From: an uncultured Anaerolineae bacterium
Lineage (GTDB): Bacteria; Chloroflexota; Anaerolineae; Fen-1058
Assembly: GCA_964651475.1 (NCBI GenBank)
Contig: CAZYXV010000019.1
Span: 11,837 to 75,836, forward strand
DNA: 64,000 nt
Direction of reading: 5' to 3'
The position numbers were made by a program, and so were the translations under genes. Positions 1-25,012 of the stretch are shown here, piece by piece (position 1 is the first letter of the stretch; every line of letters starts with the position of its first letter). Under the pieces are notes generated by a model that had not been told where the DNA came from, did no database searches, and saw nothing but the letters and a program-made list of their open reading frames with translations.

Positions 1-671
1 ACATCGTCAATATACCACTCGTCAGCCCAGTCGCCCTCATACCGGAAAGCCAGGCAGACGCGCTGACCTGCGTAGGCGCTCAAGTCAACACTTTTTTCTT
101 CCCAGGTATAGCCTGTGCCAACGCCCAATTCAACCACCTCAGCAAATTGGCCATCGTTAGGGTCGCAACTCCCTGTGGAGGCCCAGATGCCGTGGTATTC
201 ATAATAACTAGCATAGGTTTGATACTGCCAGAAGACGAGCGCGTTACTGACAGTTGGGGTAACAACTGGCATTACCAGCCAGGCGATGGCTGATGTAGCC
301 AAATCGTCATCATTGTGGTAAGCGGAGTGAGTAGGGGAGTGCGCATACGAAGTGTTCCACACCCAACCGGGGTCAGAAGCATCGCCGGTTTCGTAGAGGG
401 CCCAACCGGTCGGTGGGAATGTGCCCTCAAAATCCTCCGGTCCGAAAACATTTGCCAGAATGCCGTTGGGCGATTCGGTTGGCAAAGCTTTTGAAACCGG
501 CGCTGCCGCCTCAGGCTGTTTTTCAGTTTTTGCACCGGGCGCTCGCTCGCTCGTGCCGGTTTCCGTCTTGGCAGGCGGTTGAGGTGGGGCCGCCGCGGCC
601 GGCAATACGAGCAGGCCGGCGAGCAACAGCAAGGTCAAAGCGACAGTCGTAATAGTTGCGATCTTTTTCAT
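1..671 (-). CDS. Secreted protein, 5' part only (C-terminus lies beyond window start); signal peptide plus MAM/'choice-of-anchor'-like beta-sandwich domain
   Basis: Manual reverse-strand translation from ATG at 669-671 gives MKKIATITTVALTLLLLAGLLVLPAAAAP... with no stop to position 1; strong RBS GAGGAGAATC before the ATG; Pro/Ala/Thr linker then ...GQRVCLAFRYEGDWADEWYIDDV typical of MAM-like domains. Not in the ORF track because it runs off the window edge. Confidence 0.5.
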   Translation of the reverse strand, partial: MKKIATITTVALTLLLLAGLLVLPAAAAPPQPPAKTETGTSERAPGAKTEKQPEAAAPVSKALPTESPNGILANVFGPEDFEGTFPPTGWALYETGDASDPGWVWNTSYAHSPTHSAYHNDDDLATSAIAWLVMPVVTPTVSNALVFWQYQTYASYYEYHGIWASTGSCDPNDGQFAEVVELGVGTGYTWEEKSVDLSAYAGQRVCLAFRYEGDWADEWYIDD

Positions 672-691
672 GATTCTCCTCGCTATGTGTG

Positions 692-725
692 TTTGATGTG
701 AGGGGTGACATCATTTCACATCAAA
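692..725. promoter_or_regulatory. Inverted repeat TTTGATGTGA-N14-TCACATCAAA immediately upstream of the secreted-protein start codon (possible operator or 5'-UTR hairpin)
   Basis: Perfect 10-bp arms read directly from the sequence, 20-55 nt upstream of the minus-strand ATG at 671. Confidence 0.3.
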
Positions 726-1207: not shown

Positions 1208-3088
1208 CTATGGATAATTCATGAGCAGCGCCGGGAGATACACGCGCGCCCGCGCCGCAAAGAGCGTGATGTGAGCGGCATTGTTGCCAAGGTTCTGGTC
1301 CGATTTGGCGTCCATGGGCGCGCTGACCTGGATGGTGTACACGCCCGGCGTTGTGATGAGCAGCGTGCTGGTAAGCCTGGCCGACGCGCCCGGATCGAGC
1401 GCAGGCGATGGGATCGTTTGACTCAGGTACAACGTTCCCGCCGCGTAGGTGACGCTGGATTCGACCAGGCCGGGCGAGGCTGGCCAATTCCCCTCGTTGC
1501 TCAACGTGATCGTGATGGTGGCCGTGCTCGGCGCGCCCAGCAAAAACGTGGAAGGGACGCTGGCCGCCAGCGATGCGATGGCCAGGTCGGGCATCCAGCC
1601 AATGCGATAATCCAGGTGCTGGACGGTGCGCCGGGCATGGCTGATGGTCTGGCTGGGGTCGAGATCAAAGGTCAGCGTATACATCAGGCCGGGCGTCAAT
1701 ACCCAGCTGGCGTTTATTTGCGGTTGGGTTCCGCCGTAGCGCGTGAGCACCTGCCCTGCCGTCACGGCGCGGCTGGCATAGAGCTGGCCCGAAGCGTAAT
1801 CGCGCTGCGACAGGCGCGCCGGCACAGCCGGTTCGGAGCGCGTGCCGTGATTATCCACCTGCACCGCCAGCGAGGCGGTGAACGGCGCCGCGCCCCACAA
1901 GGGCATGGACGGCGTGGCCAGCGGCGCGGGGTACACGTCCGCGTAAAGCGTCCAGTTCTGGGCGGAAAGTTGCGCCATCGCCCCGCCGGCCGGCGTGAGC
2001 GATCCGTCAGGATACCCCGACACACCATAAAAAACCAGGTCGCCGCCGTAATAGGAATCGTACAACGAGTACCAGGCCCACAACTGCACCAGCCGGTTGC
2101 CGTCGGCGGGGTAGCCAATCAACTCGTCGGTGGCCGTCATAAAGTGCGTAAAGCAGCCCACCAGGTAATCGTGGCTAACCTGGCGCGTAAAGCGCAGGCC
2201 GTCCATGACGTACGAGCCGTCGTCGGGCACCAATTGCCCAAATTCGGTGATGATGAGAGGCTTGTCGCGCTCGCCGCGCTCGGCCATCCACTGGCGCATG
2301 GCGCGCAGGTTTTGCGCCAAGATGCCCAGGTCCACCATCTGCGCCCAGTTGTAGGTCCACCCCACGCTGCTGCTGGCGTCGGGCGGCACGCCCGCGCCCG
2401 AAAAGCCGGCGCGCTCCTGAAAAGCGTACAGGTGAATGTTCCACACATCCGTCGGCAGGCGCTCGCCGTACAATTGCTCGTAACGGTTCAGCACCTTGTC
2501 CAGGTATTCCAATCGCAGCGGCGAAGGCTGGACGATGGCGCCGATGGCGACCCGCGCCGTGGGATCGTGCGCCTTGATGAAGGTGTAAAACTCGTGATAC
2601 AGTTCGGCGTACAGGTTCGGCATGATGGGGCTGCAATTATAAATCGAATCCGGCTCGTTTCCGATCAGCCACAGCGCGCCGGGATTGGCGCGCAGGTTGT
2701 TGATCAGCGCCGTGCCGGTGATGGACTCTTGCACCTGGCTGCGCGTCGAGGCCGGGATTTTGCTGGTGCTGCAATTATTCGTGTTGACCTTGAAGCTGAT
2801 CGTGCGGGCGTATTCGGCGCCGTCGGGGTGATAGGGAGTGGAGCTGCTCCCCCAATCCACGTACCAACCCACTTTAAGCGCTGGGCTGTATACATAGCTC
2901 GACAGCGGCGGGCGCACGCCCATCCCCATCCGGTCGCTTTCGGAAGGATAAGGCGGGAAGAAAAAATCGCCGCTGGCATACGACTTGTACGCCAGCGCAG
3001 TCTCTTGCTCCGAGGCGCTCGACCACGCGGCGATCAACAACACCGCCAGCGCCGGAAGCACGGCCAGAACCAATCGCTTGAACCTCAT
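1208..3088 (-). CDS. Secreted glycoside hydrolase, GH5-like catalytic core with C-terminal DUF11/CARDB-like Ig domains
   Basis: N-terminal signal peptide (MRFKRLVLAVLPALAVLLIAAWSSA); LIGNEPD (GH5 acid/base NEP motif) and ITEFG (GH5 nucleophile region); C-terminal tail ...RVYLPALLMNYP. Confidence 0.6.
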   Translation of the reverse strand: MRFKRLVLAVLPALAVLLIAAWSSASEQETALAYKSYASGDFFFPPYPSESDRMGMGVRPPLSSYVYSPALKVGWYVDWGSSSTPYHPDGAEYARTISFKVNTNNCSTSKIPASTRSQVQESITGTALINNLRANPGALWLIGNEPDSIYNCSPIMPNLYAELYHEFYTFIKAHDPTARVAIGAIVQPSPLRLEYLDKVLNRYEQLYGERLPTDVWNIHLYAFQERAGFSGAGVPPDASSSVGWTYNWAQMVDLGILAQNLRAMRQWMAERGERDKPLIITEFGQLVPDDGSYVMDGLRFTRQVSHDYLVGCFTHFMTATDELIGYPADGNRLVQLWAWYSLYDSYYGGDLVFYGVSGYPDGSLTPAGGAMAQLSAQNWTLYADVYPAPLATPSMPLWGAAPFTASLAVQVDNHGTRSEPAVPARLSQRDYASGQLYASRAVTAGQVLTRYGGTQPQINASWVLTPGLMYTLTFDLDPSQTISHARRTVQHLDYRIGWMPDLAIASLAASVPSTFLLGAPSTATITITLSNEGNWPASPGLVESSVTYAAGTLYLSQTIPSPALDPGASARLTSTLLITTPGVYTIQVSAPMDAKSDQNLGNNAAHITLFAARARVYLPALLMNYP

Positions 3089-3160
3089 TCTCCTCGTACT
3101 CCTAACTTGTTTTGTAACTGCTCGGCCCGCCGTCCCCGGCGCGGCGAGCGAGGCTGGTAG

Positions 3161-4777
3161 TTACCCTGTTTTGAGCACCAGCGGCAAAAAGACATACCGC
3201 GACGTGTCAATCACGGTCACGTCGGCGACGGCGATAAAGACGCTCGGGCTGACTTGGGAGGTCGCCGTGATCACAGTCCACTCTACCACTCCATCGGCAG
3301 CGTCCGCCGGCGCGGTCAGGCTGAGCTGGACGGTAGCCGTCAGTCCCGCGCCTAACTGCACGGGCAGGCGCAGCGTGCCAGTAGAATAAGCGCCGCCCAA
3401 CAACGTCACCGGCCAGCGCCGCAGCGAAGCCGCCTCCAGGATAAACGTGCCAGACGTGCTGCCCGTGTTGGTGATCACGTGTTGGTACGTCACGGCGCCG
3501 CCGGGCCGCGCCGGCTGGCTGTAGCCGGGCGACAGGTCCACGTCAACCGCCGGCGTGTTCACGATGCGGCTTATCAACAATCCCAGCGCCGCCTCTACCT
3601 CGGCCGAGGTGAAATTGCAATGCCCGTAGCGCGCGCCCGGCGGGAAATTGTCGTGGCGATGTGCCCGCCCCTGCGCGGCTACTTTGGCCTGGTAAAGCGG
3701 CTCGTGCCAATACGGCACAATCTCGTCGAGCGTGGTGTGCAGCGTGACCAGCGGCGCGCGGAGCTGGCCGCTGGTTTGATAATCGGCCTCCAGCGCGTCG
3801 AGCGCGGCCGGGTCGGCGCTGAAACGCTGCGCGCCGGCGTTGAGCGCGTCGTCGTCGGCCGAGCCGGCATACACGCGGGATTGGTTATCGAATGGCTGGC
3901 CGCCCAACTTGGCCACGGCGTCGTTCGTCGCGAAAACATTGTACCACAGCACGGTGCGGATGGTATTCGAGATCGTCTCGGTGTCGGTGGGGACGTAGGC
4001 CGCGCCTGTGACGTTCAAAAGCTGCGTGACGCTGACGGCGTTGGCCGGCTCCAAAATCGCGGGCAAGATTGTCGTCTGGTAGTGCGCATCCCAATTTTCC
4101 CTCAGCGTCTGCGGGATGGAAATGGGGCTGCCCGGCATGAGGCCGGGGAAAAAGTAATCAAAGACGACGCGGAAATCGCCCACGTAATCAATCTGCTTGC
4201 GAAAATCGCCCACCGGCCCGCACGTGGCCAGGCCGCCGTCGAACACACCCGGATATTGCTCCACAGACAGCGCGGTGATCAACCCGCCTTCCGACGCTCC
4301 CACCAGGTAAACGCGCCTGAGCTGTGGATGCAACTGCCTGAAAATATCCACCAGGTCCACCAGGTCGGCCATGCCGGGGCGGATGGCCAGTCCGTTGACG
4401 CTGTAGCTGGTGGTGGCAAACGCCAGCCCCAACAAATTCACCCGGTCGGGGATGGACGTGCCATCGGGCAGCACGAGCTGCTCTTCGGGGATGCGAATGT
4501 CCTCGTCGGGAGACATGTAGCCGTGGGCAAAGACCACCAGGTCATTCCCCCAGATAAAGGGCATGCAGATGCGATACAGCGCGCCGCTGTCTTGCTCCCC
4601 GTCTATGCACGCCATGGGCTGGTCGGGTGAAAGGGGCTCTATCGCCGGTTCCACCGCCGGGTCCACCGCCTCGTCCGCATAAGCAGGGGCCGCCGGCAGC
4701 CACACGGCCAGGCCCAGCAAGGCAAGCGCGCCAGCAAGCCGAATCATCCAAAAAGAACATCGAGTCAATTGAAACAT
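3161..4777 (-). CDS. Secreted alpha/beta-hydrolase (esterase/lipase-like) with C-terminal DUF11-like domain
   Basis: Signal peptide; GXSXG nucleophile elbow in LVGASEGG; C-terminal tail ...RYVFLPLVLKTG. Confidence 0.6.
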   Translation of the reverse strand: MFQLTRCSFWMIRLAGALALLGLAVWLPAAPAYADEAVDPAVEPAIEPLSPDQPMACIDGEQDSGALYRICMPFIWGNDLVVFAHGYMSPDEDIRIPEEQLVLPDGTSIPDRVNLLGLAFATTSYSVNGLAIRPGMADLVDLVDIFRQLHPQLRRVYLVGASEGGLITALSVEQYPGVFDGGLATCGPVGDFRKQIDYVGDFRVVFDYFFPGLMPGSPISIPQTLRENWDAHYQTTILPAILEPANAVSVTQLLNVTGAAYVPTDTETISNTIRTVLWYNVFATNDAVAKLGGQPFDNQSRVYAGSADDDALNAGAQRFSADPAALDALEADYQTSGQLRAPLVTLHTTLDEIVPYWHEPLYQAKVAAQGRAHRHDNFPPGARYGHCNFTSAEVEAALGLLISRIVNTPAVDVDLSPGYSQPARPGGAVTYQHVITNTGSTSGTFILEAASLRRWPVTLLGGAYSTGTLRLPVQLGAGLTATVQLSLTAPADAADGVVEWTVITATSQVSPSVFIAVADVTVIDTSRYVFLPLVLKTG

Positions 4778-4789
4778 CTTGACCTCCCA

Positions 4790-4820
4790 GAAACCGGGTT
4801 TTTCCCAAAAACCCGGTTTC
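4790..4820. repeat. Palindrome GAAACCGGGTTTTT-CCC-AAAAACCCGGTTTC between the S8 protease and hydrolase genes (hairpin/terminator-like)
   Basis: Perfect 14-bp inverted arms seen in sequence; lies 3' of the S8 gene stop on the minus strand. Confidence 0.4.
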
Positions 4821-4835
4821 TATTAACCGTCACCT

Positions 4836-6620
4836 TTACTCATTTCTCACAATGACGGGCAAAAATATCGTGTACGGTCGAGCCGCCACTTGAATACGAG
4901 TCACGCAAGTCGCCGCCTCCACCGGGCGCGCAAAATCATTGTGCGTGAGCGTGGCCGTGACGCTCAAAGACGCGCCGGGCGACACAGTTATACTGGCAAT
5001 CAGCGTAAAAGTCAACTTGCCGCCGCCCTCGATCTCGCCCGACCATTCGTAAGTGGGAAAGGCCAGCGTGCCTTGCGGCGCCCAACTGGCCGAAACGTAA
5101 CCCTGGCGCGCATCGAGCGTGTAGGTGAACCAGCGCGTTTGCGGCAGCGCGCCGTCGTTGTTCAAGATCAAGGTATACGTGATCAGATGCGCGCCGGGCG
5201 CGCTGATCAGGGTGGGCGCGCACGTTGACACAAAAGGGTGTTCGCCGAGCACGGCCCGGTACGCATTGACCCGCCCCCAACCGGTATAGTCATCCACCCC
5301 TGGCTCGCCCACGTCGTCGGCGGCGCCGAGCAAGGTAGAGATTACGTCACTGGCCGCAAGATCGGGCTGGCGCGACCAGACCAGCGCCGCCGCGCCCGAC
5401 ACGTGCGGCGCGGCCATCGAGGTGCCCGATTTGGTAAAGTAATTGCCCCGATACCACGTACTGTAAATATCCGCCCCCGGCGCGGCCATGTCCACCTGCG
5501 GGCCGTAATTGGAAAAAGAAGCGCGCCGGTCTTGCGCGTCGGTAGCGGCCACGGCTAGCACCGGCTCGTAGGCTGCCGGGTAAAACACCGCGCCGCCGGT
5601 GTTGCCCGCAGAGGCTATCACCAGCGCGCCGCGCCCGCGCGCGTAATCCACCGCCGCGCGCAGCGTTTGCGAGTCTTGCAGCCCCCCCAGGCTCAAATTG
5701 ATGATGCGCGCGCCGCTATCGGCGGCGTATACTATGCCGGCGGCAATATCGCTATACCAGCCATCGCCGTATTGATCGAGCACCTTGACCGGCAAAATCC
5801 GCGCGCCCCAGGCAATGCCGGCGATGCCCCGCCCGTTATTCGTGGCCGCGGCGGCGATGCCGGCCACGTGTGTGCCGTGGCCATAGTCGTCGCGCACGTC
5901 GGCGTTTTCGGCCGGCGCGTATCCGCCATTATACCAGGAGTGAAAAAAATGCCAGCCGCGCACGTCATCTATTTTCCCGTTGCCGTCGTCGTCCACCTGG
6001 TTGCCGGGAATTTCGCCCGGATTGGCCCATAGCTTGGCCGCCAGGTCTTCGTGTTCCAGGCAAACGCCGGAATCTATCACGGCGATCACCACATCGGGCG
6101 TCCCAGTCACCACGTTCCACGCGGCGGGCGCGCCGATCCTGGCCGGCCCCCACTGGTTGGCCCAACCCGGATCGTTCGGAATGACGAATGACGAGTGACG
6201 AATGACGCCCGGCAAATGGCGAACGTCAAACGCCAAACGCCGGGCGTCAAATGCCAGGTCACGTCGAATGTCTGTGGAATGAGCGGCATAGTCCAGTTCG
6301 GCCCACGCCACGCGCGGGTCGCCGCGCAGCGCTTCTAGCAGCGCGCACTCCTGGCCGGCCGGCGCGCGCACCGTCCACACGTCCAGCCCCGGCAGCCTGG
6401 ATAGCGCCTGCGCCCCGGCCACTTCGTCGAGGCCGGAGCCGGTATCGCGCAGGCTTGCCAGCACAATGCCCGGCGCATAGCCGCCGGCGCAATCGGGAGC
6501 GGCCGGCAGCTCGCGCGGCGATAGCCCCACAAGGACCAACGCCAGCCCCATCAACGCCATCAACTCGATTGGGCGCAAAAGCCTTCCCTTCGTGTTCTTG
6601 GTGTCCTTTGTGGTTAACAA
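4836..6620 (-). CDS. Secreted subtilisin-like serine protease (peptidase S8) with C-terminal DUF11-like domain
   Basis: Catalytic triad motifs VIAVIDSGV (Asp), HGTHVAGIAAA (His), GTSMAAPHVSGAAAL (Ser); N-terminal hydrophobic signal (real start may be the internal Met of MALMGLALVLVG); C-terminal tail ...PYTIFLPVIVRNE. Confidence 0.85.
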   Translation of the reverse strand: MLTTKDTKNTKGRLLRPIELMALMGLALVLVGLSPRELPAAPDCAGGYAPGIVLASLRDTGSGLDEVAGAQALSRLPGLDVWTVRAPAGQECALLEALRGDPRVAWAELDYAAHSTDIRRDLAFDARRLAFDVRHLPGVIRHSSFVIPNDPGWANQWGPARIGAPAAWNVVTGTPDVVIAVIDSGVCLEHEDLAAKLWANPGEIPGNQVDDDGNGKIDDVRGWHFFHSWYNGGYAPAENADVRDDYGHGTHVAGIAAAATNNGRGIAGIAWGARILPVKVLDQYGDGWYSDIAAGIVYAADSGARIINLSLGGLQDSQTLRAAVDYARGRGALVIASAGNTGGAVFYPAAYEPVLAVAATDAQDRRASFSNYGPQVDMAAPGADIYSTWYRGNYFTKSGTSMAAPHVSGAAALVWSRQPDLAASDVISTLLGAADDVGEPGVDDYTGWGRVNAYRAVLGEHPFVSTCAPTLISAPGAHLITYTLILNNDGALPQTRWFTYTLDARQGYVSASWAPQGTLAFPTYEWSGEIEGGGKLTFTLIASITVSPGASLSVTATLTHNDFARPVEAATCVTRIQVAARPYTIFLPVIVRNE

Positions 6621-6660
6621 GATACCTGCCTGAATAGTTACTCGTACTCTTTATTGAAAA

Positions 6661-6777
6661 GGGTGTGACCAAAATCGGTGGGTCGCCTACGTAGGGGCAG
6701 GGCTTGCCCCTGCCCAATGCGGGCAACCGCAAGGGTTGCCCCTACGCCTCAACCAGAATTGGTCACACCCTATTGAA
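6661..6777. repeat. Nested palindromic REP-like element with GCAA tetraloop hairpins
   Basis: Outer inverted repeat GGGTGTGACCAA...TTGGTCACACCC, inner CGTAGGGGCA...TGCCCCTACG, and hairpins GGGGCAGGGCttGCCCCTGCCC and GGGCAACCgcaaGGGTTGCCC; a related copy in inverted orientation at 11555-11615. Confidence 0.5.
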
Positions 6778-6890
6778 AAAGCCACCGGGGTTGCCCCCAG
6801 TGGCTTTTCCGTTGTCAGGGAACCTGCCGGGTCTAGCAGGTCGTCAGAGCGGGCTGGCATTGGGATGCCAGCCTGCTCTCCGACAGGCTG

Positions 6891-9800
6891 CTAGTTGTTC
6901 TTCATAATGATGGGCAGGTAGATCATGTAACCCGTCGGGGTGACCTCTTCCACCCACGTCTCGGTCATGTCGGTGTTATCGGTGAAATCCATGTCCCAGT
7001 CGCTTGTAGTGATTTCGATATGGTTGGTTACCGTCATGCCAGAGACGGTGATGGTGATTGGCACGTACACCGTGAACACGTCACCCACATCCAACGTGCC
7101 AGAAATGGGCCACGCGTGCTGCCAAACAGCAGTGCCGCTCGCCACGACCGTGTCGGTGATCATCACGTCGTGGGCGGGCGCGTAACCATTGTTGCCATAG
7201 TTGACGGTAAAGGTCACAACGTCGCCCAGTTCGGCTGTGGCGGGACCTGACTTGGTTACCCACACGTCAGGGTGTAGCCCAACGTACGTGACCAACTCGT
7301 CAGTGGTCCGACCCATAGCGGCATCCTCGTGCGCAAAGTGGGTAATGAGGGCCACAGGCGGGTCACCCAGTCCAACCGTGACGCTGGCCACCAGTGTGTA
7401 CATCACCCCACCCGGAGGCACGTCGCCTTCCCACTCGAGTATGGGCAGGTGCGCCGTGCCGCCCGTCCAGTCGTGCGAAACGTAGGTCAGGGCCGGGTCG
7501 AGCGTGAACGAGAAATAGTGTGTCTGGGTCAATGCGCCAGCATTCATCAAATCCAACGTATAGGTGATCATGTGCGTGCCTGGCATGCTGATGTTAAGAG
7601 GCGTCACACTAACCTCGTACAGCCCCGGGTTAGACACGTGCACCAAGGCCCAGGTGTGATCGGCGCCTTCTTCGAGCAACTCGACGTGCCAGCCGTACTG
7701 GACGCCATAGTCGCCCGGATTGCCGGTGCCGCCATAGTAGCCCAGACCCGTGTTCGCGTTATACCAGTAGCAGCCCAAGCGTCCGGTGTTAGTGGAGGCG
7801 CAATCGAAGCGGAACTCGCTATCTGGGCTATTGCTGACTCCATCGTATCCGGGCGCGTTGAGCGGGTAGGACGCTTTGGCCGGAATGACCACGCTGGCGT
7901 CCCACTGCTTGGTGACCCACTTGTAAGAAGGCGGGACATAGCCCGGGCCGCGGCTGACGTACTCTGCGCCGGGATAGTAACCCAGCGCGTCGTTAAACTC
8001 GCTCACCGCAGGCCGCCCCTCAAAGTGGTTCGTAAAGAGTGTGGTCGTGAAGGGGAACGCATAGACTGTTGTATAGGTAAAGTCTACGGTATCTTGCAGC
8101 GTGAACGGCGCGTCGCGCATCTGCCCGCGCGAGGTCACGTTGCCGCCCTCGTTATCGTAACCGGCGGCGACCATGTCCGGCTCGCGGTATGGCTCGGGGT
8201 GCGCGTCAACCACCAGCGTGTTGCCCTTGGGGCCCCAGCTCGGCCACTCGGCCAGGTAGTTAAAGATTTCGGTGTCGCTCTTGCTGTTGTTGTTGTACCA
8301 CACCAGCATGCCGGTGTTGGCCGGGCCAAAGCGCCAGCGATCCTCGCCCAGCGCGCTGTCGTAGCCGCCGTTTTCGTTCACGTTGCGCCACTGGACATAA
8401 TAGTTGTGAGTAAAGCCAGTTGTGCCGTCGCTGCGAACCCATGGATCAGCATAAACCCAGTTGGCGTCGCCCGCCTCGGCGTTGTCGGCAAAAATTGTCG
8501 TCGCGCCATCCATCACGGCTACGTTATCCACAAACGCGCCCGTGTAGGTAGTGGCCCAGTCGGTCATGAACCAAAAGCGCAGCAAGATGTTTTGGCCGGC
8601 GTAGGCGGCCAGGTCAAACGTCTGCGCTTCAGGATCGGGCCAGTTAGCATTGTAGCCGTAAAAGCCTCCCAGGCCGGCGCCGCACAAGTCATCCGGGAAG
8701 CCATAGTTCCCGCCGATCCAGCCCGGATCGTGGTCGCATTGGGTATTGGCGTTGGTGAGCGTGTCCCACGTGGTTCCGCCATCGTCCGACGCCTGAATCC
8801 ACAAGAAATCCCACTCGTCTTCAATCTCATAGACCAGGTCAAAGGACAGCGTGGCGCCGCCAGCGGGAATGGCGATGGGATTGGCCGTCGTCATCATGGC
8901 ATTCGCCTGGTCCAACTTGCCGCCCCACCAGTAATAGTCGCCCTGCCAAACCGGCACGGCCATGGGAATGACCGCATCGGGCAACTCGATCTTGGCGCCG
9001 CGATAGGTGCGGGACGGGTCGGGCGAGGTGTTGGTAGAATAGTAGCTGGCCTGCCCCAGATAGAACGTGTACTCTCGGGTCGTGTCTGTGATGACGAGCG
9101 GTTCGAGCCAGCCCCACAGATCCAGATGCGTGGGATCAACCGCCGGCGGCTCAAAGCCGATGGGGAAGCCCGTCCAGTCATCGGACATCAACGACCAAAA
9201 GCCGGTCGAGGTTTGGCCTTCGCCGTAAGCGTACAGATCCCACGCGCCCAGGTTATGGCCATATTCGTGCGCGAACACGCCAATGCCGCCGTTTTCGGGC
9301 ATCATGATGTATGGGCCGGCGGCCACGTCTTGCGTCACCGAGTAAGGCGGGGTGACGGCCGACGAGTGCGACCAGACCGCCGCTTCGCCGTAGAACGCTT
9401 CAGGCACGGGCGTGGTGCGGGTAGGATCGTCGGGATCGGTTGGGTCGCGGTTCAACAGCGCGGTGCCGTCTTCCTCCCCATAACCGGCGTGGACGATCCA
9501 CAGGCGGTTAATGATGCCGTCGCCGTCCAGGTCATAGTTGGCCCAGCTAAAGTTGGGGATAGTATTGCTGATGGCATTGACGGCATCCAAGGCATCCCGA
9601 ACCAGAGTTTTGGTTGAGCCTGCATTGGGCATGTCGCCGTCGGCTCCCGCGCCGCTGCTCAAGCCTGAGCGATTGCCAGGGCAGCTATCAGCGCCGTACC
9701 ACCAGGTCGAGTGCGGCACTTTCAACCAGCCGATCACATCGCCGGTGATGGTATATACGCCGCTCGACAGGTCGCTATAGTAATCGGTCACCGATTGGCC

Positions 9801-10394
9801 AATAAAGCTTTCGTAGATGGGTGTGTCGTCTTGCATCGTGTAGCTGATCGCCACGCCGTTGCCGAACATAAAGTTATCGAACCACTGCGGGTCAAAGTCA
9901 TCGGTCCAGATGCTCTGGCCAGAGCGATCATCCAGCGCGCGCGGCCGCTCGATCATGTTGTGCAGCGGGCCGGTGTAGGTGAAGGTTGTGGTTTGGGTGA
10001 TGATGTTGGAACAGTCGCCGGTGGTGCCGGTGTATTCGTTCTCGTCGGCAATGCCTAGTGGATCCCAGGCATCGCCAGGATTCCAGGTGACCACGTCTGT
10101 GCCATCGAACTCGACCAGGATCACCAGCACGCGGTCGGTGCCGCTCTGGGCCAGCGCCGCCGCTTCGGCCGTCTGTCCGGCTTCCAGCAAACGCTGGCGC
10201 TCGCGCATGCGCAAATAATCCTTTACATTCGGCTGGTCAATCGGCTTGACCTTTTGAGTACCCGGCACGACGTCGGCCGGTTTAACGATCACTTCGTCCC
10301 CCGGCGCGGGCGGATTGGCCCCCACCGGCAGGACCGTCAATATGCTGCTGAGCAATACGACAATCGTCAATACGTTAAATAACCTGCGTTGCAT
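6891..10394 (-). CDS. Secreted zinc metalloprotease, M6 (immune inhibitor A/InhA-like) family, large multidomain (1167 aa) with DUF11-like repeats
   Basis: Signal peptide (MQRRLFNVLTIVVLLSSILTVLPVGA); HEYGHNLGAWDLY matches the M6 HEXXHXXGXXD zinc-binding motif; C-terminal tail ...GYMIYLPIIMKNN. Confidence 0.7.
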   Translation of the reverse strand: MQRRLFNVLTIVVLLSSILTVLPVGANPPAPGDEVIVKPADVVPGTQKVKPIDQPNVKDYLRMRERQRLLEAGQTAEAAALAQSGTDRVLVILVEFDGTDVVTWNPGDAWDPLGIADENEYTGTTGDCSNIITQTTTFTYTGPLHNMIERPRALDDRSGQSIWTDDFDPQWFDNFMFGNGVAISYTMQDDTPIYESFIGQSVTDYYSDLSSGVYTITGDVIGWLKVPHSTWWYGADSCPGNRSGLSSGAGADGDMPNAGSTKTLVRDALDAVNAISNTIPNFSWANYDLDGDGIINRLWIVHAGYGEEDGTALLNRDPTDPDDPTRTTPVPEAFYGEAAVWSHSSAVTPPYSVTQDVAAGPYIMMPENGGIGVFAHEYGHNLGAWDLYAYGEGQTSTGFWSLMSDDWTGFPIGFEPPAVDPTHLDLWGWLEPLVITDTTREYTFYLGQASYYSTNTSPDPSRTYRGAKIELPDAVIPMAVPVWQGDYYWWGGKLDQANAMMTTANPIAIPAGGATLSFDLVYEIEDEWDFLWIQASDDGGTTWDTLTNANTQCDHDPGWIGGNYGFPDDLCGAGLGGFYGYNANWPDPEAQTFDLAAYAGQNILLRFWFMTDWATTYTGAFVDNVAVMDGATTIFADNAEAGDANWVYADPWVRSDGTTGFTHNYYVQWRNVNENGGYDSALGEDRWRFGPANTGMLVWYNNNSKSDTEIFNYLAEWPSWGPKGNTLVVDAHPEPYREPDMVAAGYDNEGGNVTSRGQMRDAPFTLQDTVDFTYTTVYAFPFTTTLFTNHFEGRPAVSEFNDALGYYPGAEYVSRGPGYVPPSYKWVTKQWDASVVIPAKASYPLNAPGYDGVSNSPDSEFRFDCASTNTGRLGCYWYNANTGLGYYGGTGNPGDYGVQYGWHVELLEEGADHTWALVHVSNPGLYEVSVTPLNISMPGTHMITYTLDLMNAGALTQTHYFSFTLDPALTYVSHDWTGGTAHLPILEWEGDVPPGGVMYTLVASVTVGLGDPPVALITHFAHEDAAMGRTTDELVTYVGLHPDVWVTKSGPATAELGDVVTFTVNYGNNGYAPAHDVMITDTVVASGTAVWQHAWPISGTLDVGDVFTVYVPITITVSGMTVTNHIEITTSDWDMDFTDNTDMTETWVEEVTPTGYMIYLPIIMKNN

Positions 10395-10714: not shown

Positions 10715-11392
10715 TTAACCGCCTCGACTGACCTTCCAGGATCCCGCGGATGAGTCGTAGCGCATGGAAAAAGTCCAGTCCACGGGTTCTTGAATCTCGT
10801 TCGCCTGGTGCCAGCTTTTGGAACCAATGTCAAAAGCCCAAAAGAGGCCGCTCTGTATGTGCACCTTCAAGGTACACTCTACATCCGACGCGCAGCCGCT
10901 CACCTCTACGGTGTACTGCGCCTTTTCAATAAACCCCGGCGCGCTCATGGCGCCGGGCGCGAACATTTGCCCGACCGATTGCAATTGCGCCGCCAGTCCC
11001 TCGTCCGTGTAAAAACGATTGAATTGTTCGACCCACCATCCCTTCTCATCGGGCCGGCCGCTCGCGCTGACTGATTCGTAGCTATTGATCGCGCGGAACA
11101 TTTCTTCCCAATCCGCAATGATGGCCTGGCTGAGCTCCTCGGATGGTTTGTACGGCGTGGCCGTAACTGCCCCTCCAACTCCAGCCGTTGCCCTGGCCCG
11201 GGCCGTGGCCGCCAGCACCGGCGACATTCGCCGCGTGGCAGTGGGTGTGGGAAGCGGCGCAGACGTATGGATCACTGCGGCGGGCGCCACGGCGATGGTC
11301 GGCGTTGCGGCGGCCGGCGTCACGCTGGCCGGCGCGTTACAGGCCGAAAGCGCGAGCGAGCCTATTGAAACTATAATGACAAATAACATTCC
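10715..11392 (-). CDS. Hypothetical lipoprotein (Ala/Pro/Thr-rich linker plus globular domain)
   Basis: Likely start at internal Met MLFVIIVSIGSLALSAC (lipobox LSAC); no recognisable catalytic motif. Confidence 0.45.
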   Translation of the reverse strand, partial: GMLFVIIVSIGSLALSACNAPASVTPAAATPTIAVAPAAVIHTSAPLPTPTATRRMSPVLAATARARATAGVGGAVTATPYKPSEELSQAIIADWEEMFRAINSYESVSASGRPDEKGWWVEQFNRFYTDEGLAAQLQSVGQMFAPGAMSAPGFIEKAQYTVEVSGCASDVECTLKVHIQSGLFWAFDIGSKSWHQANEIQEPVDWTFSMRYDSSAGSWKVSRGG

Positions 11393-11554
11393 CCCAGGAA
11401 TAGCCCTGTGGCATTTTGGCAATTGGCACATTCTCATCAGAATAACAAGCTGGTTTTTTGCGAGATAAAACAAATACGCCGGCGCCCGGATTGGGAGCCT
11501 AAACCGTTTTGAGGAAACGAAACGGTTGGCAGGCCGCCCGTATCATCTCAAAAT

Positions 11555-11615: not shown

Positions 11616-11845
11616 ATTATTGAGAAGATACGGCCACCCTTTATCATGCCATATTCCAAAAGAATTGTCAATGGCTCACCTTGGCATCTGCTCTATCCTG
11701 GCACACAGCAGTTGTCAAGGCAACGACCATGTGCTATAGTGTATAGAAATCGCCAGCTTGCTGTACCGGATTGGTTTTTGTCTACTCAGTATAACGGGAA
11801 AAAAGCGGGCCGGATACGGCCTGAAACGTAATAAGGAGGAACCCA

Positions 11846-14800
11846 TGTTTTGCCCAAAATGCGCCCATCCTAACCCGTCCGATGCTACAACGTGCCACAA
11901 GTGCAAGCACGATATCCACGACGCGCGCGACCGCGTGTTCATCGGCCGCGAATTTATCTTTGTGCAGGCCGACGAGCGCCGCCCCGTCGCGCTCAAGGTA
12001 GACGGCGCCGTACAAACGTATCGCGCCGCCGCCATCCTTTCACGGCACCAGCACGCGGTCAGTTTTGGCGACGCGCCCCCTGCAAGCAAAAAGCAGCGCG
12101 AAAGGTGGCCCTTGCCCGATCAACCCCAACTGCCTCTGCCATCGCTCAAGCTGCTGACCGTCGTCAGCGACCGCAAGATTTACAAGCCCAGCACCGAAGC
12201 GCACCTGTTCATCGTCGCGCCGGACGCGGCGGAAAAACAAGCCGCGCTCGAAATCAAGCTGGCGGGGCAAAAGGTGTACGAAGCCAGCGTGGCGCTCAAC
12301 CGGGATGGCCTGGCGCTGCACTGTTATCCGGATCTAAAAGAAGGCGAATACACGGCGCACGTCACGCTGCCCGGCGGGCAGGCCGAGTGTTCGTTCAGCG
12401 TGGCCGAGTTCACGCTTTCTCCGCTAATCGCTACGCTGGAAAAGCACGAATACGCCAAAAAGCGCCTCACCTTCACGCTCAAGCTGCTCTTGCTGTCTGC
12501 GCCTTACTCTGGCGAGGTCGAGCTTGGCTTGCAGTGCCAGGTGTGCGGCGAGCGCGTGGTGGCCACGCAAAAAGTCAAGGCCCAGGAGGGCGTGGCGCGC
12601 GGCGACTTTGACCTTTCGGGGCACGGCGGGCCGTTCCACGTGCAAATCACCACGCCCGACGGCAACACGGCGCTGGTGTCGTTCCCCGGCACAGGCGCCG
12701 TCGAGCGCGAGCACATCAAGATTAACCGATTGGGTCAAGAGTACGAGGCAGGGTTATTGCCGTGGGAAGGCGCCGAGCCTGTGCGCGGATTTTACATCGG
12801 CCCCGGCGCGATGAACGTGACGCCGCTGACGCTGGAAAGCGTCCACGCTGAAAGCGGCAAGTTAAAAGCGGCAAGCGACATATCATCGGCGCAGGTGGTA
12901 TCGTTCAATCCGCGCGCTCTGACGGTCACGCTGGACGAGGTAAAGAGTCTCAAGCGCGGCGACACAATCGAGTTTGCCGTAGACGCGCCATACACACTGT
13001 TCACCGTCGGCGCGTTCACCAAAGACAAGCCATTTGAAGGCTGGGGTATCGTCGTCAAACCAGTGGCGTTCGAGGCCGCGCTGACCGCGCCCCCAACGGC
13101 CCAACCCGGCCAAGAGATTGGGATTCAAATTTCCGAGTCTGGCGCTGGCGCGTTTTGCCTGCTGCTCGTTTACGACGCCCGGCTGGAACACGAAAGCCCC
13201 ACGCCCAAGCTGGCCAGGCGCATTTACGAAAGCGTGCGCGACGCCACCGGCAATCTGACCGCCGGCCAGGTGCCCAGCGCGAGAGAGCAAAAGCAATTTG
13301 TGCCAGAGGACGTGGTATTGGGAGGAGTGGATGGCATGCCGATGATGCCTTTTGCGGTGAGATCGCCGATGGCCGTGATGCGCGCCGCCGCGCCTCAGGG
13401 ATACGCCATGGCTGAAGAAGCCGAAGCCATGCCCACCAAATCCCTGGCCCAGACCGCCGTCGCCCAGGCGCCGACGATGGTGGTGGCGCCCACGCGCATG
13501 GAATTCCCCGAGCTGGCCTACATCGAAATGTTTTATCTCGAAGGCCAGGCCTCGCGCACCGTCAGGCTGGGCGACCAGATTGGCACGTGGCGCGCGCGGG
13601 CTTATGTGTTCAAGGGAGCAGACTATCGCGAACTCACTGCAGACGTCCAGGCCGACAAGCCCCTCTACGCCGAACTCGATCTGCCGGCGATTGCCAGCAC
13701 CGGCGACGACATCACGGCCGCCGTCAATTACTTTACCCGCGAGCCGGCCGAGCTGGTCGTCACGTCGCTGTTCGGAGAAACGCGCCACCGGGTGACGGGC
13801 GCGGGCGCTGAGCATTTCTCCATCCAAGGCCCGGGCCGCGTGGAGGTGCGCATCGAAAATCCGCATGGCTCGGATTGGAGTGTGCGAGACGTCGCCCCGC
13901 CCGGCGTGCAAAAAGTGACCGCCTCGCGCCTGGTGATCCTGGACAAGGGGCAAACCGCGCAAGGCGAAAAGGTGGTGATTTACGCTTCGATGGGGCAGGT
14001 GCTCAAAGACACCATTACGGCCCTCATTCACTATCCGTTTGGTTGAGCGGAGCAAACCTCGTCGGCCCTGTATGGGCTGGCTATAGCTTATCGCGGCATC
14101 ACCGGCGGCGTCGTGCCGGGCGACCTGGCCACCACGCAGGGGCGCATCCTGGCTGGCCTGCAGCGCCTGTCTACGTTCCAATATCCAGACGGCATGTACG
14201 CCATCTGGTGCGGCGGCCAGCCGGGCGTAGACATCACCTCGCGCGTGGCGCATCGCCTGTTGGGATTGCGCGGGCTGCCGTTCCCAATGTCCGAAGACAT
14301 GTTGATCAAGGCCAAAGACGCGCTGCTCAAGACCAAATACCACGATAATTCGCTCTTGCCGCTCGATGCGGGCTTTGGCAAAAAGATGGAAAGCGCCGAG
14401 GACGCGGTGGCGTATTATTTCGCGGGGAATGGCCAGCGCGACAAGGCGCTCCAACTCTTGCGCAAGACCGTTCAACGCGAAGGCAGCAAGGTCTATTGGA
14501 AAGCCACCTCCTCCTGGGGCGGGAACCTGGAAGTGAGCGCCGACGCGGCGAGGGTCATGTACCACGCTAAAGACGAGCTGTTCCGCCCGGCGTTCGCGTT
14601 CGTCACCGGCAAGCTGGTCAACGGCATGTTGTATTCCACCGCCGACACGCGCGCGCTGGTGCACTTGCTCGCCTCGCTCCAGTTCGACCCGGCCACGCGG
14701 GCGGTGATTGACGGGCAAGAAGTAGCGTTGGGCGACCCTTCGGCAGGCTCAGGGCAAGTCGTCACCGTCGGCAAGCAAGTGACGGCGCTCAGCGACAACT

Positions 14801-15159
14801 TGATTGTGCGCCTGGACGAAGAGATCGAGATCAATCACCTGGAGCCGCGCGCCGATTTCCAATTCGAGGTCAAGCCCACCAAGACCAAACTGGACGTGGG
14901 CGAACGCATCCAGATCACCGTCACGCCCAAAGAGCAGACGATTGCCCCGCTGGCGCGGCTGTTCTTGCCCGGCAACCTGGCGCTGCTCAAGGGCGGCGCC
15001 AACGCGCAGACGGCGCACTTGCCCATCGAGCGCAAGGAACTCGTCGTAGACGCGGTGGCCGTCAGGCCGGGGCGCGGCAAGCTCTACGTTTCGGTCCACG
15101 ACATGTACGACGCGGATAAAGTCGGCACCATGCCGGGCATTGAAATCAGCGTCAAGTAA
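11846..15159 (+). CDS. Alpha-2-macroglobulin-family protein with N-terminal zinc ribbon and no signal peptide; reading frame interrupted by an in-frame TGA (14044-14046) exactly at the thioester cysteine codon. Candidate selenocysteine recoding, or a pseudogene, or a sequencing error.
   Basis: Strong RBS AAGGAGG before ATG 11846; N-term CPKC...CHKC; Met/Ala-rich bait-like region (AVMRAAAPQGYAMAEEAEAMP); ...LIHYPFG-TGA-AEQTSSALYGLAIAY aligns with the canonical P-x-G-C-G-E-Q-N/T-M thioester motif; downstream TED-like QYPDGMYAIWCGG. ORFs 11758..14046 and 14113..15159 are in the same frame and read through continuously. Confidence 0.6.
14061..14081 (+). other. Candidate bacterial SECIS-like hairpin 3' of the in-frame UGA
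   Basis: GUCGGCCC (14061-68) / loop UGUAU (G at loop position 2) / GGGCUGGC (14074-81): 8-bp stem including G-U pairs, apical loop 23 nt after the UGA. This fits the 16-37 nt spacing of minimal bSECIS models as I recall them. Confidence 0.3.
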
Positions 15160-15162
15160 CCC

Positions 15163-16578
15163 ATGCGTCCATCGCGCCACGCTCGTATTCGCCGCGTGCC
15201 GCCTCCCGCTCGCCGCTTTAGCTGGCAGGGGGCGGCCGCCTTTGGAATCGTCGTGCTGACGTTGGCGGCCGCCCTGGGCGCTACCGCCATCTATGTTCTG
15301 CGGATGCTTCCCCCGCGTTACATCGTCGCCTACTTGCCCGAACCGCTTCAGGGGCTTGCCAGCCGGCCGCGCGTCGAGTTGCCCACGCCAGTCGCCACGC
15401 TGCCTTCCCATCAACTGGCCGCGCTGCTCACGCCGGTTGCAACCAGCCAGCCAGCAGATCAGCCAACCCCAACGGCGAGCCTCGCCCCCTCGCCCATGCC
15501 CGCCGCCCTCTCGTCTCCCGCTCCGCTTGCCGCTTCTCCCACCCCCACCACCACGCCCACGCCCACGCCCACGCTCACCCTCACGCCGGCCTACGCGCCC
15601 GGCCCCGCACAGATAGCGCGCAGCACGCCGGCGGTACTATCCGACACGAGCATACTCTTGACCGGCTTTACCCACGCGTACCAGACGTGGAACAATTGCG
15701 GGCCGGCCACGCTGGCCATGGCCCTGAGCTACTTTGGCTGGGCCGGCACGCAAAAAGACACCGCCGCCTTTTTAAAGCCCGACCCCGAGGATCGCAATGT
15801 ATCGCCGGACCAGGTCATCACTTATGTGCGTTCGCAGGGCTACCACGCCATGCTGCGCTCGGGCGGCACGCTGGATATTCTCAAGGCGATGTTGCACGCC
15901 GGCTTGCCGGTCCTTATCGAAAAAGGATTCGAGCCGGACGACAAGTTGGGCTGGATGGGCCACTATTTGTTGATCGTGGGCTATAGCGAGCCGCGCCAAG
16001 AGTTTGTGGCCATGGATTCGTACCTGGGACCGTCGCAATCCGCGCCGTTCGCCGAGACCGACCGCTACTGGCGGCAGTTCAACCGGACGTACATTGTGAT
16101 TTACGAAACCGCCGACCAGGAATTGATGGTGTCGCAGCTGATCGGCAGTTCAGCCAGCGACGCCGCCATGCATCAAAACGCCATGGCCGCCGCCCAGGCC
16201 GAAGTCGCCGCCAACCCACAAGACGCTTTCGGCTGGTTCAATATCGGGACGAATTACGAAGCGATGGGAATGCACGCCGAGGCCGCCGCCGCTTACGACC
16301 GCGCGCGGCAATTGGGTCTGCCCTGGCGCATGACGTGGTACCAGTTCGGCTGGTTCGAGGCTTACCTGGCCACGGGGCGATACGACGACGTATTGGCGCT
16401 GGCCGACGCCACGCTCAAGTCTAATCCGTACTCTGAAGAAATGTATTATTACAAGGGACGCATGCACGCCGCGCGCGGAGAGCTAGACGCGGCGCGCGAG
16501 CAATATCAACTGGCGCTCCAGCACAATGCCTACTTTTCCGCCGCGCAGCAAGCCCTGATGGCGTTAGGCAATCCATAG
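15163..16578 (+). CDS. Membrane-anchored peptidase C39-like domain protein with Pro/Thr linker and C-terminal TPR repeats
   Basis: N-terminal TM helix; YQTWNNCGPATLAMALSYFGW matches the C39-like catalytic Cys region; C-terminal TPR-like helices; 4-bp gap to the A2M-like gene suggests an operon. Confidence 0.6.
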   Translation: MRPSRHARIRRVPPPARRFSWQGAAAFGIVVLTLAAALGATAIYVLRMLPPRYIVAYLPEPLQGLASRPRVELPTPVATLPSHQLAALLTPVATSQPADQPTPTASLAPSPMPAALSSPAPLAASPTPTTTPTPTPTLTLTPAYAPGPAQIARSTPAVLSDTSILLTGFTHAYQTWNNCGPATLAMALSYFGWAGTQKDTAAFLKPDPEDRNVSPDQVITYVRSQGYHAMLRSGGTLDILKAMLHAGLPVLIEKGFEPDDKLGWMGHYLLIVGYSEPRQEFVAMDSYLGPSQSAPFAETDRYWRQFNRTYIVIYETADQELMVSQLIGSSASDAAMHQNAMAAAQAEVAANPQDAFGWFNIGTNYEAMGMHAEAAAAYDRARQLGLPWRMTWYQFGWFEAYLATGRYDDVLALADATLKSNPYSEEMYYYKGRMHAARGELDAAREQYQLALQHNAYFSAAQQALMALGNP

Positions 16579-23694: not shown

Positions 23695-23698
23695 GGCG

Positions 23699-25012
23699 AT
23701 GAAAATGGCAAACGGCCCCATGCCAACCTGGTTGAAGCAAGCGATTTTGGGCGCCGCTTTGCTCCTGGCGCTGCCGGGGCTGCCGGCGCTGGTGGGAACG
23801 TGCTGCGTGGCGTTGATGCTGGCGGCGGACGGGAGCCGCGAAGCGCCGAGTGTGGGCGTGGCCAGCCTGACGTTTGCGGCCGTGACGCTTGGAGCGGGCG
23901 GCGCGGTGGGCTGGCACGCGTTGCGCTCGCTGCGCGGCAAACCCTCCAGGCTGCTGCGCCTGCCGCCCGCCTGGGCACTGGCCGGGCTGTTCGGATTTTT
24001 CGTGGCCGTGGGGCTGCTTGTTTCCAGCGCCAACCTTGCCCCCGGATTCTTTTTCCCGCCCATCTTGTTGGTGGCCGCCAGCCTGCCGCCGCTGCTGGCC
24101 GTCTCGTGGTTTACCCCCATGCAGTCGCGGGGGTTCACACGCATGGAGGCAGATGGACTCACCTGGCGGCGCGGCGTGGTGGCTTTTGCCGGCGGCGCCA
24201 CGGTCAGCGTGGCGATTGCGCTCGTGCTGGAAACACTGCTGCCCGTGATCTTTATGGCGCTGATTTCCAACTTGTACGGCGCCGTCACCAAGAGCGTGCA
24301 GGTCCTGTTCGACGCGCTGGCCGGCCAGGAAATCGCCTCGGCCATCACCAGCCGCGGCTTTATATACGTTTTCGTGCAAATCGCCGTCGTCGCGCCGATG
24401 GCGGAAGAACTGGCCAAGCCGCTGGTCACGCTGCCGCTGGTGGGCCGCCTTTCGCGCCGAGACGCCTTTCTGGCGGCGGCCATGGCCGGGGCCGGATTTG
24501 CCGCGCTGGAAAATGTGATTTATGCCGGGCTGGGGTTCTATTTCTGGGCCGGCATCTTGATCGTGCGGGCGGTGGGCGGCGCGATTCACCCGCTGGGCGC
24601 GGGGCTGGTGGGCCTGGGCTGGCGCGACGTTTTGAGGGGCGAGCCGCGCGCCTGGCCCAGGTGGCTGGTCCGCTTTGGCGCGGCGGCCGGCATGCACGCG
24701 CTGTGGAACGGCGGCTCGCTGCTGGTCATCACGCTGGCCGGGGCGCGTTTTTTTGGCGAGCTGCCCCCCGAGATTGACGTGCTGGGGCTGTCGGCGGCGG
24801 GGACGACGCTGGCGTTACTGATCGTGCTGGGACTGGCCGCCCTGTGGATGGGGCGCGCCATCGCGCAGCGCTCCATGGCCGCCGCCCCCGAGCTTGCACC
24901 TACAGACATTGAATTTACGCTTTCGGATCGGGCCGCGGCGATTTGGGCGCTGGCCTGCCTGGCGGCGATTGTGCCGGCGGGAATCGCCGGCTTGCAGTTG
25001 TTGATGCGCTAA
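23699..25012 (+). CDS. PrsW-family (M82-like) intramembrane protease homolog
   Basis: Multi-TM protein with EExxK (MAEELAKP) and HxxxN (MHALWNGG) motifs characteristic of PrsW-like proteases; 4-bp gap from the upstream gene. Confidence 0.5.
   Translation: MKMANGPMPTWLKQAILGAALLLALPGLPALVGTCCVALMLAADGSREAPSVGVASLTFAAVTLGAGGAVGWHALRSLRGKPSRLLRLPPAWALAGLFGFFVAVGLLVSSANLAPGFFFPPILLVAASLPPLLAVSWFTPMQSRGFTRMEADGLTWRRGVVAFAGGATVSVAIALVLETLLPVIFMALISNLYGAVTKSVQVLFDALAGQEIASAITSRGFIYVFVQIAVVAPMAEELAKPLVTLPLVGRLSRRDAFLAAAMAGAGFAALENVIYAGLGFYFWAGILIVRAVGGAIHPLGAGLVGLGWRDVLRGEPRAWPRWLVRFGAAAGMHALWNGGSLLVITLAGARFFGELPPEIDVLGLSAAGTTLALLIVLGLAALWMGRAIAQRSMAAAPELAPTDIEFTLSDRAAAIWALACLAAIVPAGIAGLQLLMR

Follow-up and report, generated by a model that had tools for sequence, protein, structure and literature searches.

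A catalogued YLP-box tail on four co-located secreted hydrolases of an Anaerolineae bacterium, and its possible role as a sorting tag

Main

Why do four secreted hydrolases of different families, encoded side by side, end in the same few residues? The locus that raises this question lies at the left end of a 64,000-nucleotide stretch of contig CAZYXV010000019.1 from an uncultured Anaerolineae bacterium (the window, throughout), where five co-oriented minus-strand genes encode exported proteins; four of these, consecutive and all complete, share in the open reading frame (ORF) list the C-terminal tail h-[FY]-L-P-h-h-h-[KRM]-x(2–3)-stop (h, hydrophobic). A sequence-only reading, made earlier without database searches, had taken this tail for a dedicated sorting, anchoring or recognition signal that it did not recognize as described. 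The motif is in fact a rediscovery of a catalogued but uncharacterized one, the NCBIfam YLP box, and the claim of novelty fails, a match to a catalogued C-terminal sorting domain being an outcome that the sequence-only reading had itself named as refuting; what stands of the proposal is a tail that behaves as a portable, position-specific tag on exported proteins, for which the NCBI curators had chosen the same label of a putative sorting motif.

Four consecutive genes share a C-terminal tail

The genes and their tails, all on the minus strand, are as follows.

1208..3088, minus strand: clan-A-like glycoside hydrolase, secreted (626-aa ORF); carries a CARDB domain and ends in a slightly degenerate YLP box
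1211..1246, minus strand: tail of the glycosidase-like protein, RVYLPALLMNYP, in which Ala replaces L/V/I after the Pro and Met replaces K/R
3161..4777, minus strand: alpha/beta hydrolase, secreted, 538 aa (Hydrolase_4 and Peptidase_S9 matches); Ig-like domain, YLP-box tail
3164..3199, minus strand: tail of the alpha/beta hydrolase, RYVFLPLVLKTG (ORF translation)
4836..6620, minus strand: S8 subtilase, secreted, 594 aa from a TTG start (Peptidase_S8, E 1e-62); beta-rich C-terminal domain, YLP-box tail
4839..4877, minus strand: tail of the S8 subtilase, PYTIFLPVIVRNE (ORF translation)
6891..10394, minus strand: secreted M6 (InhA-like) metalloprotease with MAM, VEG, Ig-like and DUF11/CLIPPER domains and a YLP-box tail (1167 aa)
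6894..6932, minus strand: tail of the M6 metalloprotease, GYMIYLPIIMKNN (ORF translation)
3..710, minus strand: exported protein in which a signal peptide is combined with a choice-of-anchor J domain (NF038128 choice_anch_J, E 1.9e-13); its C-terminus lies beyond the left window edge

The existence of a conserved tail on four secreted hydrolases is borne out statistically. The strict tail expression is matched by only 4 of the 509 window ORFs of at least 60 aa, and these are the four cluster genes. The core [FY]LP[hydrophobic]3 occurs five times in the 35 likely genes of the window (18,855 aa), with four of the five occurrences starting 9–10 residues from a C-terminus; the number of genes expected to carry the core at that position is 0.0035, giving P(≥4) ~6e-12. 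Because the codons for L and P vary among the copies, selection acts on the peptide and not on the DNA.

The families named in the sequence-only reading were mostly right: the S8 assignment, the M6 protease with its InhA MAM, VEG and DUF11 domains, Hydrolase_4 and CARDB (residues 500–604 of the glycosidase-like protein) are all returned by profile searches. The catalytic part of the glycosidase-like protein has no Pfam match of its own, and no sequence relative of the protein was found in the PDB; it carries NEP and ITEFG motifs, and PF11790 (Glyco_hydro_cc) is present in some of its homologues. All four N-termini show a basic n-region followed by a hydrophobic core and, as assigned by eye, resemble Sec signal peptides. 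The further statement that the tail immediately follows DUF11- or CARDB-type Ig domains holds only in part: the Ig-like match in the hydrolase (Ig_VWA7, residues 421–523) is weak and sub-threshold, the C-terminal domain of the S8 protein has no Pfam match, and a linker of 3–5 residues separates the last strand from the tag. The three aliphatic residues are followed by one basic residue (Met in the glycosidase-like protein), then 2–3 residues, then the stop.

The C-terminal domain of the S8 protein shares 41% identity (E 8e-20) with residues 929–1038 of the adjacent M6 protease, the penultimate domain of that protein, which indicates that the two genes have exchanged domains.

Two NCBIfam models cover the tail motif

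When the tails alone are scanned, NCBIfam gives two models that bear the name ‘YLP-box putative sorting motif’-containing protein: sort_motif_YLP (NF050076), with 11 positions and a 15-bit cut-off, and ultrashort_CTERM (NF053834), with 10 positions and a 10-bit cut-off. The tail of the S8 protein (20 residues) scores 15.1 bits with NF050076 and 14.8 bits with NF053834, over both cut-offs, and related or orthologous tails score 15.7–19.0 and 11.5–17.3 bits, respectively, also above both. The tails of the hydrolase (13.0–13.7 bits) and the M6 protease (12.7 bits) fall below the NF050076 cut-off of 15, and that of the glycosidase-like protein, with its A and M substitutions, has no NCBIfam match. 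The models cover xYxh[YF]LPhhh[KR], which maps onto P-Y-T-I-F-L-P-V-I-V-R of the S8 tail. Of the four tails, that of the S8 protein alone reaches the cut-offs, those of the hydrolase and the M6 protease are 1.3–2.3 bits short, and the entry is a label without a mechanism. In scans of the four full-length proteins neither YLP-box model was reported; routine annotation would therefore miss these carriers.

The tag in homologues and metagenomes

Orthologues conserve the tag. Among the best 120 homologues of the S8 protein, 112 carry [FY]-L-P-h-h in their last 32 residues, with 4–6 residues following the Pro in 74 of the 112; among the best 120 homologues of the glycosidase-like protein (31–62% identity), 101 end in a YLP box. 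The tagged members of both sets together span 31–64% identity, and the motif usually leaves 4–7 residues after the Pro. Modal tails of the glycosidase homologues are YLPLVLR* and YLPLxLRxxP* (asterisk, stop), and orthologues show YLPLxLRxxP where the window protein has RVYLPALLMNYP; given these tails and the 101 tagged homologues, the window sequence is best regarded as a slightly decayed YLP box.

The homologues also separate the tag from the domains that precede it in the window. In many S8 homologues it directly follows the catalytic domain (...GWGRIDAYAAV...FLPLIRR), and in others PKD, DUF11 or other domains; short forms of the glycosidase-like protein consist of catalytic core and tag only. 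The proposed tie to DUF11 and CARDB domains accordingly does not hold. A syntenic locus in a metagenome-assembled genome of the Thermoflexales (L082) encodes four tagged proteins, namely an S8-PA-PKD protein (IYLPIVMKNF), the M6 orthologue (LFLPLIMKAF), the S8 orthologue (SYLPLVIR) and a CARDB protein (YYMPAILRGSATQQIR), and a 1915-aa S8 protein of Litorilinea aerophila ends in YQIFLPISMKP. All homologues that come with an organism name are from Chloroflexota (Thermoflexales, Anaerolineae and Caldilineae).

Metagenomic DNA was searched with a pattern coding for [YF]LP[LIV][IVM]hKNx-stop, and the counts that follow are among the matches listed. A real stop codon and an intact 5′ end are present in 44 matches, and 30 of these close ORFs of at least 90 aa, as do 4.9% of stop codons in general (P 2e-29). 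A set of 44 tag-ending proteins drawn from the matches listed, some of them cut by contig edges, spans 42 Pfam families, all extracytoplasmic in type, including DUF11/CLIPPER, CARDB, SBBP, beta-helix, S8, M23, solute-binding protein, PKD and CBM families. Neighbouring genes, which lie outside the selection by the pattern, are often tagged too; one locus (L093) has four tagged genes in a row, including those for SdrD_B/SpaA and cohesin proteins.

In control DNA, whether of other phyla or of viruses, the tag is no more frequent than chance predicts. In 1.27 Mb around S8 genes of other phyla (genome contigs, mostly not from Chloroflexota, recovered with universal S8 peptide patterns), 4 loose matches were found in 3969 ORFs, three in short junk ORFs and one on a Caldilineaceae contig. 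The same DNA pattern gave one match in a viral collection (non-stop, 32 codons), which is chance level.

Eighteen of the 80 metagenomic loci shown read through TGG in place of a stop and encode an N-terminus, M[LF]R[YF]LPL[IV]LKNCW, rather than a C-terminus (L089, L092, L097, L103, L114, L117, L134 and others). The protein is conserved and looks like an ABC-type permease, and the likeness of its N-terminal peptide to the tag is due to convergence.

Two further genes accompany the cluster. An alpha-2-macroglobulin-like gene with an N-terminal zinc ribbon adjoins the tagged protease cluster both in the window (11758–14046 and 14113–15159, plus strand) and in L082 (1–1731), and its product may protect the cell against its own proteases; a small lipoprotein-like gene is likewise syntenic (window 10715–11473; L082 5668–6303).

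Anatomy of the tag

The consensus, taken from unbiased positions of two sets (tagged S8 homologues, n = 112; position −1, n = 54), is a G/P-rich linker followed by [Y/x]-[K/R/x]-[VIL]-[YF]-L-P-[LIV]-[IVL]-[LMV]-[KR], 0–4 further residues and the stop, about 11 residues in all. G and P abound at positions −5 and −4, in keeping with a tail that hangs free on a linker. Y is frequent at −3, and −2 is occupied by K, R or some other polar residue; at −1, 48 of 54 sequences have V, I or L. The core consists of Y or F, then L (95/112) and P (112/112), and is followed by three aliphatic residues, the third of which is sometimes replaced by Ser or another residue. Next comes R, K, H or Q (R in 45, K in 17), and then 0–4 residues. 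The hydrophobic run is contiguous from −1 to +5, with basic or aromatic flanks. No transmembrane (TM) helix follows the motif in any of the four window proteins, as had been stated, only 3–4 residues remaining after the aliphatic ones. A profile of the tail had no match in the PDB at E ≤ 10.

Two other interpretations were set aside. A nucleophilic Lys, as in pilin-like motifs, is at odds with Arg being the commoner residue at that position, and a PDZ-type C-terminus with a trailing length of 0–27 residues.

Proposed role of the tag

We propose, with a probability of about 0.55, that the YLP box is a portable C-terminal linear motif that serves as a sorting or retention tag on Sec-exported envelope proteins and is read by a dedicated envelope factor. 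Appended to envelope and extracellular proteins of many unrelated folds, the tag would act after translocation, and the factor that reads it would hold hydrolases, adhesin-like proteins and binding proteins at the filament surface, against diffusion away from the cell. As the tag cannot span a membrane, recognition would have to occur outside the membrane or at the translocon exit. The reading might proceed by cleavage and transpeptidation, as performed by sortases or PorU, or by non-covalent docking; both modes are tentative, and we consider each about as probable as the other and well short of even odds.

That the YLP box is a sorting signal at all we infer from its terminal position, its portability across folds, the purifying selection upon it, its restriction to exported carriers, the anchored-protein domain repertoire of those carriers and its occurrence in one lineage, a combination that a sorting or retention tag fits best. 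The stalk domains found on tagged proteins carry LPXTG or other anchors elsewhere, and the choice-of-anchor J protein in the same cluster is also counted in favour of this role.

Several observations weigh against it. Neighbour clustering of 47 tag-bearing loci gave no consistent partner enzyme. A tail with 3–4 aliphatic residues cannot retain its substrate in the membrane in the way of characterized sortase-type signals, and a minority of homologues have 10–27 residues after the motif, such that a free C-terminus is not always close. One tagged protein (415 aa; L126, 39–1286) has a canonical N-terminal lipobox, which would make a pure anchoring role redundant for that protein. The AlphaFold model of the S8 protein is uninformative in the tail region, with a pLDDT of ~30 over the C-terminal 135 residues, and no paper on the YLP-box motif was found in the literature.

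If the tag truly sorts, it governs the surface retention of exoenzymes, adhesin-like proteins and binding proteins across a phylum of abundant filamentous degraders that are widespread in wastewater, sediments and hot springs, and it would break the rule that bacterial C-terminal signals require a membrane-spanning segment. It might even be the first bacterial C-terminal sorting signal that has neither a TM segment nor a folded domain, with an envelope enzyme or receptor of a new class as its reader, although we rate this stronger claim as improbable. The tag is also a cheap marker of the surface proteome for metagenome-assembled genomes of Chloroflexota.

Search for a partner that reads the tag

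The sequence-only reading had suggested looking for a sortase, an exosortase or a CPBP- or PrsW-type enzyme, and no link to any of these could be made. No sortase, exosortase, rhomboid or CPBP gene was recurrent in the 47 tag-bearing loci, and no sortase gene was found among the window genes scanned. Two genes of the window were considered as candidates.

23699..25012, plus strand: PrsW-family intramembrane protease, 437 aa, starting 5 bases after the gene for a 1959-aa protein
15163..16578, plus strand: membrane-anchored, extracytoplasmic C39-like cysteine peptidase, built of an N-terminal TM helix, a Pro/Thr linker, Peptidase_C39_2 and TPR repeats (domain matches)

The PrsW-like gene is unsupported as a partner, as it directly follows the gene for the 1959-aa membrane protein and lies 13 kb from the cluster. 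That membrane protein has an N-terminal zinc ribbon and a SCO7613-type C-terminal membrane domain, and its gene spans, together with the PrsW gene, window positions 17815–25012 (plus strand).

The C39-TPR peptidase belongs to a family of uniform length and 50–75% identity across Chloroflexota, in whose alignment Gln174, Cys179, His267 and Asp285 are invariant. Its structure, predicted with confidence (mean pLDDT 81), is best matched by the pseudomurein endoisopeptidase PeiR, followed by C39 double-glycine proteases, staphopains and phytochelatin synthase. At four other loci (L203–L206; three gene look-ups), the gene is followed directly on its strand by one for a MurJ-like flippase, with which it is apparently co-transcribed, and a gene for a LysM-M23 peptidase is nearby; these neighbourhoods contain no tagged gene in 75 kb. 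These features point in the first place to work on the cell wall. A transfer of tagged proteins onto a lipid-linked wall precursor would be possible but is unsupported, and as a reader of the tag the peptidase is a weak lead.

Three kinds of neighbour did recur, each in 3 of the 47 loci: membrane proteins of the Wzy_C type (O-antigen-ligase-like), of which one is a fusion with TPR repeats; a polytopic membrane protein of 560 aa encoded directly downstream of DUF11-type tagged genes; and tail-fibre-like proteins (that of L139 with Peptidase_S74), which adjoin tagged repeat proteins of ~100 aa. At 3 of 47 loci each, and with no homologue in the window, the Wzy_C-TPR and 560-aa proteins are unsupported as partners.

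The 560-aa protein occurs on three independent metagenome contigs (L112, 3722–4054; L115, 25–1698; L120, 838–2538). It belongs to no Pfam family, has a conserved PLDDAWIH loop after its first helix and looks GT-C-like. The ~100-aa proteins are secreted STNY-type repeat proteins with the C-terminus GYW.G....Y.[IL]YLPLILKN (L126, 1348–1647; L139, 292–594; L156, 3329–3619; L130; L128); the tail-fibre-like proteins beside them have a common N-terminal domain, to which the L139 member adds a Peptidase_S74 chaperone domain. In L156, the STNY-type gene also adjoins a gene for a Wzy_C-TPR membrane protein.

Alternative explanations

The tail could be a self-sufficient hydrophobic stub that needs no partner, its 7–9 hydrophobic residues and terminal basic residue pausing in the SecYEG lateral gate or partitioning into the outer leaflet or an envelope layer, with weak and reversible retention as the result. 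The contiguous run from −1 to +5 with its basic and aromatic flanks, the lack of a partner in 47 neighbourhoods and the fact that, at the three positions after the Pro, composition is kept more tightly than the exact residues would all agree with such a stub. However, Y/F-L-P is nearly invariant (P 112/112, L 95/112) and hence more specific than a stub requires, and seven hydrophobic residues are, on general biophysical grounds, too short for stable membrane insertion. The near-invariance of these residues makes a partner-free stub the less likely account, and we regard it as unlikely.

A second possibility is that the tail is a maturation or turnover signal, that is, a site through which exoenzymes would be activated, or their lifetime limited, by extracellular proteases (the co-encoded S8 and M6 enzymes might serve) or by a C-terminal processing enzyme. 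The S8 and M6 protease genes are syntenic with tagged genes in three lineages (the window, L081 and L082), and the alpha-2-macroglobulin-like inhibitor gene is conserved beside the cluster. Yet some tagged loci, such as L208, have no proteases, and the tag is also present on non-enzymes, including a solute-binding protein, a cohesin protein and the ~100-aa repeat proteins. Since such proteins carry it, a role in maturation is made less likely; we consider it slightly less credible than the stub.

Thirdly, the tail might direct a second export step across an outer sheath, an S-layer or another outer layer, as the type IX secretion system (T9SS) C-terminal domain does in Bacteroidota. It would be apt for this purpose as a signal without a TM segment whose carriers are already equipped with a Sec signal peptide, and some tagged genes adjoin Wzy-type surface-glycan genes at L081, L122 and L156. 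These links, however, are confined to 3 of 47 loci, none of the neighbourhoods showed secretion-system genes, and the lipoprotein carrier in L126 would not be expected on such a route. This explanation seems quite unlikely.

Finally, simple duplication, in which the tail would be nothing but the last strand of an Ig-like domain shared by four paralogous C-terminal modules, might be suspected from the Ig-like (CARDB/DUF11-type) domains at the ends of all four proteins and the 41% identity between the S8 C-terminal domain and an M6 domain, but this alternative, which the sequence-only reading had named as one that would refute it, is contradicted, because that M6 domain (929–1038) is penultimate and does not bear the tail, identity among the four terminal domains is no more than 20–27%, many homologues are tagged directly after the S8 or glycosidase core without any Ig domain, and 42 Pfam families are tagged.

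Other features of the window

The window also encodes an exported CAP/YkwD-domain protein (57037–58227, plus strand) with a long Pro/Thr/Ser linker, a C-terminal TM helix and a basic end (...LGIALLARKAHP); the same genome thus also uses ordinary C-terminal membrane anchors. Between ~30000 and 41500, the GC content falls to 52–56% from ~61%; this stretch, which is possibly an island acquired for regulation or defence, contains genes for two AAA_16 STAND-type NTPases (one with TPR, one with Trans_reg_C), a radical SAM protein and a protein with an NYN domain. A 583-aa protein (25575–27326, minus strand) gives an unusually strong full-length match (E 4e-220) to DUF6909, a family of unknown function.

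Comparison with known C-terminal signals

Ultrashort C-terminal sorting motifs that are read by a soluble or peripheral factor and involve no TM segment are exemplified by PTS1 (-SKL), read by the TPR domain of PEX5, and by the CaaX box. The reading of PTS1 by a TPR domain is the reason for our interest in the TPR-bearing peptidase of the window. These signals differ from the YLP box in being eukaryotic and cytosolic, with unrelated sequences, and in needing an exact C-terminus, whereas the YLP box tolerates 0–27 trailing residues.

The T9SS C-terminal domain likewise has no TM segment and is carried by Sec-exported hydrolases and adhesins; it is removed by the cysteine peptidase PorU, and the protein is then attached to a surface glycolipid. 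By contrast with the 11 residues of the YLP box, it is a folded beta-sandwich of 70–100 residues and belongs to a diderm envelope. The T9SS models had no match in full-protein NCBIfam scans, and the terminal domains of the window proteins are of the CARDB/DUF11 type.

PEP-CTERM with exosortase, PGF-CTERM with archaeosortase, GlyGly-CTERM with rhombosortase and MYXO-CTERM with myxosortase resemble the YLP box in being modular, lineage-restricted tags with many carriers per genome, some of them linked to surface-glycan loci. The YLP box differs in its lack of a TM helix, since the PEP-, PGF-, GlyGly- and MYXO-CTERM signals need such a helix within reach of an intramembrane enzyme (bioRxiv 10.1101/2023.06.07.544157; PMC11980579). 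None of these four models had a match at E ≤ 10, as had been surmised from the sequence for PEP-, PGF- and GlyGly-CTERM and for the LPXTG and T9SS signals, and neither YLP nor the Chloroflexi are mentioned in Haft's paper on myxosortase (bioRxiv 10.1101/2023.06.07.544157; PMC11980579).

The LPXTG-type NCBIfam model had no match to the tails or to the full proteins. YLP tails read LP-hhh-[KRM]-x2–3-stop, without T-G, and their hydrophobic part comprises 3–4 residues versus the ~20 of a sortase signal, with no retention in the membrane. Both signals nevertheless have a C-terminal L-P and the order of motif, hydrophobic residues and basic residue, and both are found on Sec-exported surface proteins with SdrD_B, SpaA and DUF11/CLIPPER stalks, such that the YLP box may be seen as mimicking the layout of a sortase signal in miniature.

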